DNA of 64,000 nt. Source: Escherichia coli (GTDB lineage: Bacteria > Pseudomonadota > Gammaproteobacteria > Enterobacterales > Enterobacteriaceae). The stretch lies in the NCBI RefSeq assembly GCF_048403405.1, contig NZ_CP183129.1. One strand, 5' to 3'. The notes below the pieces were generated by a model. The model worked only from the letters and a program-made list of their open reading frames with translations, was not told the DNA's origin and ran no database searches. Below, piece after piece: positions 50,365 through 61,036 of this stretch; the stretch's first letter is position 1, and each line of letters starts with the position of its first letter. Made by a program: the position numbers and the translations under genes.

Positions 50365-51559
50365 TATTTACCCCCTCACGATCTAAAGCGCGCAGCAGCA
50401 TTCCTTTCGAAATGATGCCGACATACTGTTGGTCCTCGTCGACCACGGGCACCGCACAGGGTGCCTGTCCGACATGAGAGAGCAACTCGCTAAGAGGCGT
50501 TTGTGCATCGACCGCTAACGGCGCATCAATCAGCGCCGCATCAAGACCTTGCTGCTGCGTTAACGCGGCTTTAAGCGAATCGATAGACACAGCGCCGACA
50601 AACTTATTACCGCGTTCGATGACGTAGCCATATTCGCGATCTTCATCCTGCAATAATTTCAGTGCCGAACGCGGGCCGAAGCCGGGGGTTTTACGAATTA
50701 AGCCGTTCGGTGTACGACGGGCAATATCTTTCGCACTGAACACCTGGCTAATATCGACGCCACGGAAGAAGGTACGGACATAATCATTCGCCGGATTATT
50801 GAGAATTTCATCCGGTGTGCCGACCTGTACCACTTCACCATTTTGCATAATGGCAATTCGGTCGCCAATACGCATAGCTTCATCGAGATCGTGGGAAATA
50901 AAGACAATTGTGCGCTGATGTTTCGCCTGTAATTTTACCAGCTCATCCTGCATCTCGGTGCGAATTAATGGATCGAGTGCTGAGAAGGCTTCGTCCATTA
51001 ATAATATATCCGGATTAATCGCTAACGCGCGGGCTAATCCCACACGTTGACGCATCCCGCCAGAGAGTTCATCCGGGTAGCTGTGGGCATAATTTTCCAG
51101 CCCGACCTGACGCAGTGCATCAAGGGCTTTTTCCCGGCGTTCTTCGGCATTAATTCCGGCCAATTCCATACCGAATGCAGTATTGTCCAGCACGGTCATA
51201 TGCGGCATTAAGGCAAAGGACTGGAAGACCATCGCAATCTTTTTTCTGCGCACCTCACGGAGTTCGGCGTCGGATATTTTGGCAATATCCACACCATCAA
51301 TCAGCACTTGCCCGCGGGTGGGTTCAATCAGGCGATTGAGAAGGCGTACCATTGTGGATTTACCCGAACCGGATAATCCCATGATGACAAATATCTCGCC
51401 TTCTTCAATGGCCAGACTGGCGTCTTTTACGCCAAGCGATAGCCCAGTTTTTTCCAGAATTTGTTCTTTTGAAAGTCCTTGTTCGATATATTTGAAAGCT
51501 CGCTGTGGATGCTCACCAAATATTTTATAAAGATTTTTAATTTCTAATTTAATTGCCAT
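50357..51559 (-). CDS. proV: Glycine betaine/proline ABC transporter ATPase ProV (400 aa)
   Basis: [28 protein letters not shown]..., Walker [10 protein letters not shown] and C-terminal CBS domains. Confidence 0.95.
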
Positions 51560-51915
51560 GCAATAGAAAGATTCCTGTTATTTGTTTATGTCGATACATT
51601 ACCCAATGGAAATAGTCACTTTTTTCTACCCTAACATACTGAGAATCTGAGGCAACCCCTGATGGCAAATGTGGCATGAATATTGATGTGAGCAAATCGC
51701 CGGAATTTCCCATGATATAAGGGCTGAGAGCAAATCGAGAAAAGTTGATATTTTTTGTCAAAGATAGCGAAAAAACGCCTGAATATTGTGGTTTCAGGCG
51801 AATAATGCAACAGAGTGTCAGTGTAGATCACCACAAAATATTTGCGTGATAAAAAGCTATTTGGTGGGAATTATTTCCCTGCTGCGGGTAGTGATATTTT
51901 TGAAAAATAACACCC

Positions 51916-52884
<969 letters not shown>

Positions 52885-55862: not shown

Positions 55863-56294
55863 TTACATCCGCATGGAAACGGCCAGACGGTTAAAACAAT
55901 TCATCAGCCCGATGGCAAACGTTAAGTCGCTGATCTCTGCTGCGCTGAAATGCTCAAGCAAAGGCTGATAAACCTCGTCTTCCGCATGGGTTCTGGCAAT
56001 TTCGGTTACCGATTCCGCCCATGCCAGCGCCGCCCGCTCGCGTTCATCAAAATGATGGCTTACGCGCCAACCTGCCAGGGCGTCCAGTTTGTGCTGTGGC
56101 ACGCCGGATTTGCGCAATGCTTTGCTGTGCATCTCCAGACAAAATGCGCAGCCGTTGATTTGCGAGACGCGCAAATAAACTAACTCCATCAACGTGGTAT
56201 CCAGCGTGCTATTTTCCAGTGCCGTTTTGGCCTGCACTAGTGCGTTATACACTGCCGGGCTAAGTTCGTAGTAAGGCTGACGTAATGTAGTCAT
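55863..56294 (-). CDS. AhpD-like / carboxymuconolactone decarboxylase family protein (143 aa)
   Basis: MTTLRQPYYELSPAVYNALVQAKTALENS...VSQINGCAFCLEMHSK...; CxxC-containing AhpD core motif. To my recollection there is no K-12 counterpart at this position. Confidence 0.75.
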   Translation of the reverse strand: MTTLRQPYYELSPAVYNALVQAKTALENSTLDTTLMELVYLRVSQINGCAFCLEMHSKALRKSGVPQHKLDALAGWRVSHHFDERERAALAWAESVTEIARTHAEDEVYQPLLEHFSAAEISDLTFAIGLMNCFNRLAVSMRM

Positions 56295-56381
56295 ACAGTT
56301 TCTCCTCTTATTAACGCCCGCAATGTAGCACTATAATGGACTGCTAAAGAGAGCCATAAATTACCTAAAAAAGCAGACCAT

Positions 56382-57716
56382 ATGCCGCGCTATCAGGATA
56401 TCGCCCGTCAGTTAAAAACGGCTATTGAGCAAGGGGAACTGAAACCCGGCGCAAGGCTGCCTTCAAGTCGTACCTGGTCGCAGGAGCTGGGGGTGTCTCG
56501 ATCCACTGTCGAAAATGCGTATGCTGAGCTGGTGGCGCAAGGATGGCTGATCAGGCGGGGACAGGCTGGCACATTTGTCAGTGAGCGGATATATCCGCAA
56601 CAATCTACTGTACAAGTTGTAGCTTTTGCCGGTGAAAGTCAGCAACCGTTGCCATTTCAAATGGGATTACCCGCACTCGATCTCTTTCCGCGAGAGCTGT
56701 GGGCGCGGGTGATGGGGCGTCGCCTTCGTACCCAGACGCGCTTTGATTTGGCGTTAGGCGATGTCTGCGGTGAGGTGGCGTTGCGCGAGGCAATAGTTGA
56801 TTACTTACGCGTTTCACGTGGGATTGATTGTCAGCCAGAGCAGGTCTTTATCACTCACGGTTATGCGGCCTCAATAGCTTTAATTCTGCACGCGCTGGCG
56901 AAACCGGGAAACGGGATGTGGATAGAAGATCCCGGCTTTCCACTGATTCGCCCGATTGTCACTCGCCATGATGTGGAAATTTTGCCTGTGCCGGTTGATG
57001 ACAATGGACTGGATATCACAAGCGGAATACAAAATTATCCTGATGCGCGTTTTGCCCTGATAACACCAGCACACCAAAGTCCGCTGGGTGTGGCGCTCTC
57101 TTTAGCGCGCAGGCATCAGATACTGGAATGGGCAGATCGTAGTCAGGCATGGATTATTGAAGATGATTATGACAGTGAGTTTCGCTATCACGGTAAGCCG
57201 TTACCGGCGTTAAAAAGTCTCGACGCACCGCAGCGGGTAATTTATGCCGGAACATTCAGCAAAGCGCTATTTCCTGCATTGCGCTGTGCGTGGCTGGTGT
57301 TGCCGGTGAAGCAAATTGCACAATTCCGCCACCAGGCGTCACTGGCTCCATGTGCGGTACCTGTTCTATGGCAGAACACACTGGCAGACTTTCTTCGCGA
57401 GGGGCATTTCTGGCGGCATCTGAAGAAAATGCGTCAGCATTATGCTCAACGTCGGCAATGGATTGAGCAAGCGTTGACGCAGCAAGGATTTCAGGTTGTG
57501 CCGCAGAAAGGTGGTATCCAGATGGTGATCAGAATGATAGGCGATGATATTGCCCATGCGCGTAAAGCCAATGCTGCAGGCCTTGCGGTGCAGGCACTTA
57601 GCGACTGGCGTATCCGTTCAAGTGGGGAAGGTGGATTACTGCTCTCGTTTACTAATATCGTTAACGAAGGTATGGCGCGACAGGTAGCACAACAATTACG
57701 TAAAGCCTTAAGCTAA
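56382..57716 (+). CDS. MocR/GabR-type transcriptional regulator (GntR HTH + PLP aminotransferase-like domain, 444 aa)
   Basis: MPRYQDIARQLKTAIEQGELKPGARLPSSRTWSQELGVSRSTVENAYAELVAQGWL... (GntR HTH) followed by an aminotransferase class I-like domain (...GTFSKALFPALRCAWLV..., K of SK being the predicted PLP lysine); divergent from the AhpD-like gene. Confidence 0.75.
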   Translation: MPRYQDIARQLKTAIEQGELKPGARLPSSRTWSQELGVSRSTVENAYAELVAQGWLIRRGQAGTFVSERIYPQQSTVQVVAFAGESQQPLPFQMGLPALDLFPRELWARVMGRRLRTQTRFDLALGDVCGEVALREAIVDYLRVSRGIDCQPEQVFITHGYAASIALILHALAKPGNGMWIEDPGFPLIRPIVTRHDVEILPVPVDDNGLDITSGIQNYPDARFALITPAHQSPLGVALSLARRHQILEWADRSQAWIIEDDYDSEFRYHGKPLPALKSLDAPQRVIYAGTFSKALFPALRCAWLVLPVKQIAQFRHQASLAPCAVPVLWQNTLADFLREGHFWRHLKKMRQHYAQRRQWIEQALTQQGFQVVPQKGGIQMVIRMIGDDIAHARKANAAGLAVQALSDWRIRSSGEGGLLLSFTNIVNEGMARQVAQQLRKALS

Positions 57717-57772: not shown

Positions 57773-58102
57773 CTACGATTTGCGCATGCTTAACAGTGCG
57801 CCGATAAAAATACCTACCGCAGCTGCTGTACCCACGCTACACCAGGGTCTTTCACGAACAAAAGAATCCGCGCAGCCAACGGCATCGCGCGCGGCTTGCT
57901 GGACGCGAGTACGACCATGCATTCGCGCCCTGGTTTCTTTCAGTAGAGCCTGCGCTTTACTGCGTGCGGCTTCAGCTTCCCCTTTAGCGTCGCTGCCCCA
58001 GGACTTCAATACAGATTCGAGGCTATCAGCTAATTGATTGACATCATTCTGGATATCCTGCACGCCATCATCAACGTCGTTGCGGTTCGGTCGGTTAAAC
58101 AT
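57773..58102 (-). CDS. ygaM: ElaB/YqjD/YgaM-family ribosome- and membrane-associated protein (DUF883, 109 aa)
   Basis: MFNRPNRNDVDDGVQDIQNDVNQLADSLESVLKSWGSDAKGEAEAARSKAQ..., C-terminal TM anchor; the track ORF starts 4 codons earlier. Confidence 0.88.
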   Translation of the reverse strand: MFNRPNRNDVDDGVQDIQNDVNQLADSLESVLKSWGSDAKGEAEAARSKAQALLKETRARMHGRTRVQQAARDAVGCADSFVRERPWCSVGTAAAVGIFIGALLSMRKS

Positions 58103-58253
58103 ATGATCCCCCATTAGAATTCGATGTAATTTTCAGTGTAGACCATAATTTTCTTAACTGAGGTTCATCGCGGCTTTATGGACTTTTCTGAAAGCGTTGT
58201 GAATGCGCAATCAGGTAAGGTAGGCCCGCGGTTGATAATAACGAGGATCAAAT

Positions 58254-58598
58254 ATGTATTTACGACCAGACGAGGTGGCGCGCGTACTTGAAAAAGTCGG
58301 TTTTACTGTCGATGTGGTAACCCAGAAGGCTTATGGTTACCGCCGTGGGGAAAACTATGTCTATGTTAATCGCGAAGCGCGAATGGGACGTACCGCCCTG
58401 GTGATTCATCCAACATTAAAAGAACGTAGTTCAACACTGGCTGAACCCGCTTCCGATATTAAAACTTGCGATCATTATCAACAATTTCCGCTCTATTTAG
58501 CAGGCGAGCGACACGAGCATTACGGTATCCCCCATGGCTTTAGTTCGCGTGTTGCGCTTGAACGTTATTTGAATGGTTTATTTGGCGAAGCCAGTTAA
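58254..58598 (+). CDS. ygaC: Uncharacterized protein YgaC (114 aa)
   Basis: [53 protein letters not shown]... Confidence 0.85.
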
Positions 58599-58634
58599 AG
58601 ACGCGACTGGCGATGCCAGTCGCGAAAAGAAGGG

Positions 58635-59084
58635 TCAGGCTTTTACCTGCTGGTAACGGCTGACTTTAAACAGTCGGCGGCAATAATCGAGGAAGTAGCC
58701 ATAAACCGCCCCCATCAACATCGAAACAACGATGTTTGAACTGACCGCCGCCATAATCTGATGCCAGTCTGCGCCCACCACTAACAAGATCGCCACATAC
58801 ACCGGTGACTGGAACGTCACATAAGCCATGATATCCGCCAGATTTTTTATCCAGCCCGACGGGCTAACTTTGCGTGCTGCGCGCATAAACAGATCGCGGT
58901 ACATACCGTATGGCCATGCAATTAAGATGTTCACCGGAATCGCTACCAATCTGGAATAAAAAGACTGTTCGAAGCTCATTCCGGAGAGGAAAACTTCAAT
59001 ACACATGTTCACGACAGAACAGTAAACAACCATCGCGAACGTATCTGCAACTGCATGACGCAAGCGTGACTGCGGTGAGAACAT
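58635..59084 (-). CDS. alaE: L-alanine exporter AlaE (149 aa)
   Basis: [46 protein letters not shown]...; the track ORF extends 37 codons upstream to 59195. Confidence 0.88.
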
Positions 59085-59751
59085 GCTAATGCTCCTTAAT
59101 AAAAGCGTAATGGGATGTGAATGGAGATGAAAGCAGTGGATCTCATTGCCATCTGCATTTTCGCATAGCGTATATCGCTGGCTATGACTAATCAATTAGT
59201 GAAAAATTTTTATTTAAACTGTTTTTGTAGATAAAATATTCCGTAACGGCGCGTTTTTTGTACATTGTGGATTTTTACATGCCGATATGGTTTATTTTAA
59301 ATTGAATCAATTAGATATGATCCTGCCTTTAATTACACTAATGAAAGTTTGGGGGTGAGATAACGCTATAAGCGTAGAGAATTCGGTGTATGTCGTGACC
59401 GGGTCATTTTCAGCATTTTTTATGCCAGAAAATGTACATTGACAGCAGAAAGCACCAGTGAGGGGTGTTTTCATTTATTCGGTTAAATTGCATTTTTATT
59501 CACTTTGGTTTTGTCAGGCTTGCGGAATTAGCGAGCAGAGAGCGCCGCTCTGTTCACCAATAACCGAAATTACTCATCAAAATGGCTAATATATAATCTT
59601 GAAATTATTCTGAGAGTTTCAGAAAATAACAGCTGAAATAATCTCGTGCAGGACTGTAAATAGATTAAATTTTGTGGAAATATAATAAGTGATCGCTTAC
59701 ACTACGCGACGAAATACTTTTTTGTTTTGGCGTTAAAAGGTTTTCTTTATT

Positions 59752-60156
59752 ATGTCCGTAATGTTACAAAGTTTAAATAACATTCGCACTCTCCGTGCGA
59801 TGGCTCGCGAATTCTCCATTGACGTTCTTGAAGAAATGCTCGAAAAATTCAGGGTTGTCACTAAAGAAAGACGTGAAGAAGAAGAACAGCAGCAGCGTGA
59901 ACTGGCAGAGCGCCAGGAAAAAATTAGCACCTGGCTGGAGTTGATGAAAGCTGACGGAATTAACCCGGAAGAGTTATTGGGTAATAGCTCTGCTGCTGCA
60001 CCACGCGCTGGTAAAAAACGCCAGCCGCGTCCGGCGAAATATAAATTCACCGATGTTAACGGTGAAACTAAAACCTGGACCGGTCAGGGTCGTACACCGA
60101 AGCCAATCGCTCAGGCGCTGGCAGAAGGTAAATCTCTCGACGATTTCCTGATCTAA
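59752..60156 (+). CDS. stpA: H-NS paralog StpA (134 aa)
   Basis: [48 protein letters not shown]...[10 protein letters not shown]. Confidence 0.95.
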
Positions 60157-60202
60157 TTACTGAGGCCGGATGCCGCCGCTATGGCGCGTCCGGCGTCGCT
60201 TC

Positions 60203-60727
60203 TCAAGCTCGTTGGTTCCACGGCATCTTACCTAACAACCTTGCCATACCACAAAAACCGCTAATTCCTGCAAACAGTAACCCGGCACCAACAAAGCCGC
60301 TTAATAAGAAGAAACCGCTATTTACGGTATAACCTAGTATAACTCCGATTAATATTAAACCACCCGCAGCGATCTGCACCTGGCGCATTAACGGCAAGGG
60401 TTGAGATTTATTTACCGCTACTGGTAATCCTGCTTTTTTCCAGCCATCAATCCCATCTTCGAGTAAAAAGATTTCTGCGGGGGCGGCAATCGCTGCTAAT
60501 TTATCGGCGTTATTACTGGTGCGTTTACCTGCCTGGCAGTGGAATATAATTTGCTCGTGACGTAATTTAGCCGGAAGACCTGACTGTTCCAGCTCGGATA
60601 ATGGAGCCAGATCTGCTTCAGGAATATGCTCACGAAGATATTCATCAGCGTCACGAATATCGATTAACTTTGCGCCGCGTGCGATTAATTCTTGTGCATC
60701 ATGCGGCGAAATGGTTGTCAAAGCCAT
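60203..60727 (-). CDS. ygaP: Rhodanese-domain inner membrane sulfurtransferase YgaP (174 aa)
   Basis: [44 protein letters not shown]..., rhodanese CQAGKR motif and C-terminal TM helices. Confidence 0.9.
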
Positions 60728-60736
60728 AGTGACTCC

Positions 60737-61036
60737 TTACGGACAATAGACATTTTTCAGGGTGGCGATAATGGCATTTACCGCCTCATTTTTAATGGAA
60801 TATAGAATGCGTTGGGCATCCCGTTGGCTGTCGATAAGCCCTTCGTCCCGCATACGAGCGAGATGCTGTGATGTCGCAGAGGCACTCAGTCCGGTAATGC
60901 GCGTCAGCTCTCCCGCACTGGTGCCGGGGGAACCGCTAAGCATGCACAGAATCAGCAACCGTTTAGGGTGGCTCATTGCTTTCAATAAGGCCGCTGCCTG
61001 TTCGGCACTGGCCTGTAATTGCGCGAGTTCAGTCAT
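60737..61036 (-). CDS. ygaV: ArsR/SmtB-family transcriptional regulator YgaV (99 aa)
   Basis: MTELAQLQASAEQAAALLKAMSHPKRLLILCMLSGSPGTSAGELTRITGLSASATSQHLARMRDEGLI... Confidence 0.9.
   Translation of the reverse strand: MTELAQLQASAEQAAALLKAMSHPKRLLILCMLSGSPGTSAGELTRITGLSASATSQHLARMRDEGLIDSQRDAQRILYSIKNEAVNAIIATLKNVYCP

Follow-up and report, generated by a model that had tools for sequence, protein, structure and literature searches.

The AT-rich stretch between alaE and stpA in Escherichia coli is very probably a control region shared by these two divergent genes, with alaE read leftward from it and stpA rightward. As such, the feature is already known and ordinary: it is a textbook-style long, AT-rich divergent control region under Lrp and H-NS/StpA, the key experiments on it already exist for strain K-12, and its importance beyond a tidy annotation is small. 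The original prediction, made within a 64-kb window (the whole stretch of DNA that was analyzed), had described about 550 bp of this DNA as a long leader of stpA without ORFs, typical of DNA bound by H-NS, StpA, and Lrp and long enough to hide a small ORF or an sRNA. That interpretation was half right: the DNA is regulatory and of the H-NS/Lrp type, yet it holds no long stpA leader. What we add is a corrected boundary, a limit of ~60 nt on the stpA leader, a comparative map (deeply conserved elements on the alaE side, a stpA core promoter that is also conserved, and a centre that evolves fast), and a reasoned negative on hidden ORFs and sRNAs.

Extent and composition of the alaE–stpA spacer

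The intergenic region comprises 667 bp (59085–59751), because RefSeq alaE starts at the minus-strand ATG at 59084; the plus-strand ATG of stpA lies at 59752. On the left it is flanked by the alaE coding sequence (58635–59084, minus strand), which encodes an L-alanine exporter of 149 aa according to its translation and the RefSeq annotations of strain TUM14771 and K-12. On the right is stpA (59752–60156, plus strand), which by annotation and translation encodes an H-NS paralogue of 134 aa. The ~550-bp gap before stpA is real, but with the RefSeq alaE start its left edge moves from 59196 to 59085; the earlier edge came from a TTG-extended alaE ORF (58635–59195). Neither the K-12 nor the TUM14771 annotation has any feature between the two genes.

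The segment 59000–59800 is 100% identical to E. coli strain TUM14771, and of 5426 complete E. coli genomes, 5419 contain a match to it at a single chromosomal place, in every case under alaE/stpA annotations. The spacer allele of the window is a minority one: 157 of the 5419 genomes carry it at an identity of at least 99%, and 5260 at 95–99%. Differences from K-12 range from 0 to 6% by segment; in the spacer centre the K-12 divergence is 0.063, similar to that at four-fold sites (0.049). A repeat search of the spacer returned short repeats only, with no structure like that of a mobile element, and the spacer itself is present in one copy per genome. Elsewhere in the window, two genes that are extra relative to K-12 occupy ~55900–57716, between ygaM and nrdH: a MocR-type regulator of the PLP-dependent aminotransferase family (56382–57716, plus strand) and, divergent from it, a gene of the carboxymuconolactone decarboxylase family.

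The description of this DNA as strongly AT-rich, with A/T tracts, held up. The GC content of 59196–59751 is 0.340, vs. 0.525 for the whole window, and it is the minimum among the 556-bp stretches of the 64 kb; only eight overlapping stretches, with starts at 59183–59200, are equal or lower. The two tracts singled out by the original prediction have GC contents of 0.270 (59200–59340) and 0.284 (59560–59700), and the middle is less extreme (0.429). Runs of at least four A or four T occur at 33 per kb in the spacer vs. 9.3 per kb window-wide, a 3.5-fold enrichment. Among 36 intergenic regions spread over 50 kb of the annotated genome that matches the window, the spacer ranks first in length, and its GC content over all 667 bp is 0.352, compared to 0.422 for the other intergenic regions pooled. 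The GC minimum, the tract enrichment, and the length of the spacer together show that the observation is real and far exceeds chance expectation.

We also examined predicted bending and protein-binding motifs. A wedge model of curvature yielded predicted bends at the 93rd–99th percentile of the window at 59205–59285, 59405–59445, 59565–59605, and 59645–59685; the strongest predicted bend is 57.6 degrees, at ~59408. The 10-bp periodicity of AA/TT is not significant over the entire spacer and is modest in sub-regions (3–8 of 300 shuffles reach the observed value). The 15-bp Lrp consensus, YAGHAWATTWTDCTR, has two matches with three mismatches in the spacer (59166 and 59598), and it is not enriched in the window (78 matches vs. 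67 ± 9 in shuffles). For the high-affinity H-NS motif, TCGATAAATT, the spacer has one match with two mismatches (59228), indistinguishable from background. These consensus scans neither support nor contradict a role for Lrp and H-NS in the spacer.

Conserved elements at the two ends

With one genome taken per species, an AlaE-based scan located 80 loci; stpA lay divergently upstream in 58 of them and was undetected in 22. The 58 species loci and the window (59 sequences) share the divergent alaE/stpA layout, with spacers of 475–789 bp and GC contents of 31–43%. Sequence conservation is bipartite: strong blocks at 59085–59320 and between 59672 and the stpA ATG flank a centre that evolves fast. 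In 19 of the 22 loci without detected stpA, tblastn with neighbouring proteins identified yqaE as the nearest recognized gene upstream of alaE, at a distance of ~600–1080 bp. These 19 species (within L042–L082; e.g., Kosakonia, Silvania, and Superficieibacter) lack the ygaV–ygaP–stpA block, a difference due either to insertion of the stpA block in one of the lineages or to its loss from the other.

At the alaE end, conservation between genera points to a putative sigma-70 core promoter on the minus strand (59165–59195). It would consist of a −35 element, TTGATT (59195–59190), and a −10 element, TACGCT (59172–59167), with a spacer of 17; the latter overlaps the sequence TATACG, which reads TATAAT in several genera. 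In the promoter-like core, TTG...CAG.GATATA..CTAT, the elements TTG, CAG, and ATA..CTAT are kept between genera (32–80 species). A conserved near-palindrome, TAGCGTATATCGCTG, occupies 59166–59180 and agrees with 12 of the 15 positions in the Lrp consensus.

The alaE 5' UTR predicted from this promoter, with a TSS placed purely by promoter conservation, would be ~76 nt long (59085–59160, minus strand). It contains an invariant Shine-Dalgarno (SD) sequence, AAGGAG (59097–59092). A motif, AAA(A/G)C(A/G)CT, is kept across ~30 genera, and the rest of this C/A-rich UTR is variable. The motif is located at ~59143–59135 (minus strand), ~20–28 nt downstream of the predicted TSS; we found no explanation for it. 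In a literature search, no report emerged of GcvB action on this C/A-rich UTR. Apart from a trivial SD/ATG helix, which lacks covariation, the UTR showed no conserved RNA structure, and its folding z-score was −0.26.

Upstream of the putative alaE promoter, conservation, repeats, and predicted bending delineate an array of deeply conserved AT-rich blocks (59197–59316). The individual blocks lie at 59205–59216, 59223–59242, 59253–59262, 59271–59280, and 59305–59316. Direct repeats of AATCAATTAG occur at 59190 and 59305, 115 bp apart, and a second pair, TTTTTGTAGAT and TTTTTGTACAT, is separated by 33 bp; the predicted bend of the array in the wedge model falls at the 94th–98th percentile. Conservation of the blocks is 80–100% outside Escherichia, and we assign them to alaE because it is equally high in the 22 loci with no stpA detected upstream. 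The array would most likely be the Lrp-binding upstream region of alaE. From the sequence comparison, we infer that the blocks and the near-palindrome over the −10 element may together form an Lrp array for this gene. Ihara et al. (2017) reportedly placed the Lrp-dependent region of alaE at roughly −160 to −80, which would coincide with the conserved blocks. One locus departs from this pattern: in Citrobacter amalonaticus S646 (L011:2376–2500), a GC-rich insertion directly upstream of alaE replaces the conserved promoter block. The spacer of that strain measures 778 bp, and the insertion may be a repeat element.

The notion of a long stpA leader did not survive the mapping of the start site. 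In K-12, the stpA TSS is located at 2,798,556 and has a “perfect” −10 element, TATAAT; it is active in vitro and in delta-hns cells but silent in the wild type (PMC10301672). By alignment, this TSS falls at 59692 in the window, with TATAAT at 59681–59686. Because the published TSS maps to 59692, only ~60 nt are leader: the 5' UTR at 59692–59751 (plus strand; 60 nt in the window, 61 nt in K-12) is the sole true leader of stpA. About 230 bp at the other end of the spacer would instead constitute the divergent alaE promoter region, which the original prediction had not recognized. The stpA 5' UTR differs by 0–7% within the genus. It gave no sign of RNA structure, as RNAalifold found 0 pairs in 16 sequences and single-sequence folding had a z-score of −0.54.

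The stpA core promoter (59675–59703, plus strand) is defined by the published TSS and −10 element (PMC10301672) and by an alignment of 32 species. It includes an overlapping promoter pair, TGGAAA (59675–59680) and TACACT (59698–59703), spaced by 17. The combination of TGGAaA and TAnnnT was present in 32 of 32 aligned species; outside Escherichia and Salmonella, TATAAT occurs only in a few Citrobacter. This distribution suggests that the stpA start site may differ by ~18 nt between genera. Free and Dorman (1997) reportedly located the promoter of stpA directly in front of the gene. Within stpA itself, Term-seq detected an ORF-internal RNA 3' end at ~60004 (K-12 2,798,243), and the primary terminator is at K-12 2,798,048 (PMC7815308).

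The variable centre and the search for hidden genes

The AT-rich centre of the spacer (59321–59655, 335 bp) is poorly conserved and indel-rich between genera, with gaps reaching 60–90% in genera other than Escherichia. Among seven Escherichia, 37% of its columns are invariant, and the single invariant run spans 9 bp. Its divergence from other Escherichia (L003 and L005–L007) is 0.43–0.46, vs. 0.29–0.31 at four-fold sites of the flanking genes. This faster pace could stem from codon-bias constraint, from alignment noise in AT-rich DNA, or from accelerated regulatory turnover. The length and AT-richness of the centre persist across genera and its sequence does not, a pattern that fits a platform for binding and bridging and an insulator between promoters. 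The centre thus appears to be kept for its length and composition, not for its sequence, and it is best read as a putative platform for the binding or bridging of DNA by H-NS, StpA, and Lrp that would also separate the two promoters. In a more novel reading, which we rate as improbable, the conservation of length and AT-richness without that of sequence would reflect selection on the physical properties of the DNA for Lrp or H-NS bridging and not on the sequence.

Could the spacer conceal a small ORF or an sRNA, as had been proposed? We saw no sign of either in conservation, Rfam, RNA folding, SD scoring, Term-seq, or one small-ORF list, and none was found within the conditions and datasets that these cover. 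The accompanying statement that the region is without ORFs is correct for annotated and conserved ORFs, but not for mechanical ones, of which the spacer carries 21 of at least 10 aa, the longest having 55 aa. These give some room for a small protein or a regulatory uORF, for example the 20-aa ORF at 59158–59096 (minus strand), which ends on the alaE SD, its stop codon overlapping that sequence. This ORF is intact in four of seven Escherichia, a figure that no other ORF of the spacer surpasses. However, each of the 21 is disrupted in at least one of the seven; of two ORFs checked for their start codons (59158–59096 and 59265–59188), neither keeps the start between genera; and the ATG of the 20-aa ORF is only 2–3 nt from the predicted alaE TSS. 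Scoring of SD sequences yielded no compelling candidate. SD-like sequences at starts in the spacer are weak, and the best are antisense to the alaE UTR: a few starts reach −5 to −7.9 kcal/mol (alaE, −8.4; stpA, −3.8), and the ORFs behind them, of 9–15 aa, are non-conserved in the genus or too short for a conservation test. Among the supplementary entries listed for a Ribo-seq small-ORF study, none lies at the spacer coordinates. We therefore regard a small protein or uORF as extremely improbable. An unannotated sRNA gene in the central spacer is hardly more credible. The length of the spacer would accommodate one, a terminator-like hairpin (59448–59472, plus strand) and a promoter-like TTTACA-18-TAAATT (59274–59303, plus strand) are present, and absence from the annotation means little because RefSeq omits even MicA in the strain that matches the window. 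Yet the T tract of the hairpin is poor, K-12 has a mutated stem, and in E. albertii the stem is unrecognizable; the faster-than-four-fold divergence of the centre also speaks against a gene there. In Term-seq, under the conditions of that study, no 3' end was recorded on either strand at K-12 2,798,243–2,800,533 (PMC7815308 supplement). An Rfam search of 58000–61000 in E-value mode gave a best E-value of 3.3 in the spacer, and all matches scored far below the gathering scores. The families in question were CRISPR-DR63, MIR862, cow-rumen-1, and rli43, none of them above chance. As a positive control, Rfam identified the MicA sRNA (RF00078, 83.9 bits) at 41233–41304 on the minus strand, in the luxS–gshA spacer.

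Slightly better placed, though still unlikely, is a second stpA promoter farther upstream, such as TTACTC-16-TATAAT (59570–59597), which would start transcription at ~59604 and give stpA a conditional leader of ~150 nt. The sequence TAATATATAAT (59587–59597) is near-invariant in the seven Escherichia, with a single T>C change that keeps TAnnnT, and a consensus scan also lists TTGAAA-17-GAAAAT at 59599–59627. Nevertheless, E. albertii and the cryptic clades do not keep the −35 element of the candidate, the element as a whole is weakly conserved outside the genus, and promoter-like matches are not enriched in the region (5 vs. 3.2 ± 2.0 in shuffles). The only TSS cited for stpA in PMC10301672 is 2,798,556, on the grounds of in vitro and delta-hns experiments, earlier dRNA-seq, and RegulonDB. 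We also consider improbable any genus-specific, condition-dependent element that escaped the datasets examined here, whether the ~150-nt-leader stpA promoter at 59570–59597, a transcript that appears only once H-NS/StpA silencing is lifted, or a regulatory use of the AAA(A/G)C(A/G)CT motif in the alaE 5' UTR. A shared divergent control region for alaE and stpA is the reading that we retain.

Control by Lrp and H-NS, and likeness to other systems

Published experiments in K-12 cover the stpA TSS, the occupancy and bridging of the locus by Lrp, and H-NS binding and repression; to these we add what we infer here, namely the alaE promoter and its TSS, the identity of the blocks as Lrp sites, and the role of the centre as a platform. 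The evidence on Lrp comes from ChIP-seq, qRT-PCR, and AFM (PMC10127797). Of two Lrp ChIP-seq peaks at the stpA–alaE locus, one lies in the spacer and the other within ygaP; the study describes Lrp peaks at the alaE promoter. Deletion of the ygaP-internal peak lowered the activation of stpA by Lrp more than fivefold, and AFM revealed leucine-sensitive Lrp bridging of a stpA–alaE fragment. In minimal medium Lrp represses alaE slightly, whereas with leucine, isoleucine, and valine it activates the gene strongly (all PMC10127797). The addition of valine raised alaE expression more than 300-fold, and alaE has been linked to Lrp and ppGpp (PMC7066862). In Genomic SELEX, both the RpoD holoenzyme and H-NS bound the spacer (PMC3946193). 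The resemblance to H-NS/StpA/Lrp-bound DNA that had been proposed is thus borne out by Lrp ChIP and bridging (PMC10127797), H-NS SELEX (PMC3946193), and derepression in delta-hns (PMC10301672).

These observations can be assembled into a working model. For alaE, ~120 bp of deeply conserved AT-rich blocks would lie upstream of a sigma-70 promoter at ~59165–59195. An Lrp oligomer most likely assembles on these blocks; in response to alanine and leucine, it would change over between repressing alaE weakly and activating it strongly. For stpA, the TATAAT promoter would fire at 59692 to yield the 60-nt leader. Filaments of H-NS/StpA, spreading over the AT-rich and locally bent DNA, would keep this promoter silent, and Lrp would activate it by bridging the spacer to the other Lrp site, inside ygaP. 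Between the two ends, the 335-bp centre would harbor no gene and would act as the binding and bridging platform and as the promoter insulator.

The closest comparison is the stpA–alaE (ygaW) control region of K-12 itself, which has the same locus, flanking genes, TATAAT −10 element, and TSS context as the window; the published Lrp double peaks and bridging and the H-NS repression apply directly to the window locus. The differences between the two spacers lie mostly in the unconserved centre. In addition, the alaE −35 element that was predicted by Shimada et al. reads GTGATA in K-12 and GTGTAA in the window.

Among other Lrp-controlled promoters, those with multi-site upstream arrays (ilvIH, dadAX, and oppA) resemble the spacer in that it, too, has several conserved AT-rich blocks over ~120 bp, and they have amino-acid-modulated activation and repression in common with the alaE–stpA locus. 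For dadAX, Lrp double peaks and bridging were described alongside those of stpA–alaE (PMC10127797). In contrast to these promoters, the spacer poorly matches the classical 15-bp Lrp consensus, and its individual Lrp sites are putative. The micA locus, in the luxS–gshA spacer, shares with the alaE–stpA spacer the character of an unannotated gap between protein genes in the window. It differs in its 83.9-bit Rfam match; the alaE–stpA spacer has no above-chance Rfam match, conserved terminator, or Term-seq 3' end (PMC7815308).

The nrdF–proV spacer (~51270–52080) is the only other locus in the window with 556-bp stretches below 40% GC. We take it to be the proU upstream region, a classical H-NS target, and it is AT-rich intergenic DNA like the alaE–stpA spacer. 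The latter, however, has twice the length and controls a divergent pair of promoters. Because one of these drives an H-NS paralogue, stpA, the silencing would be partly autoregulatory.
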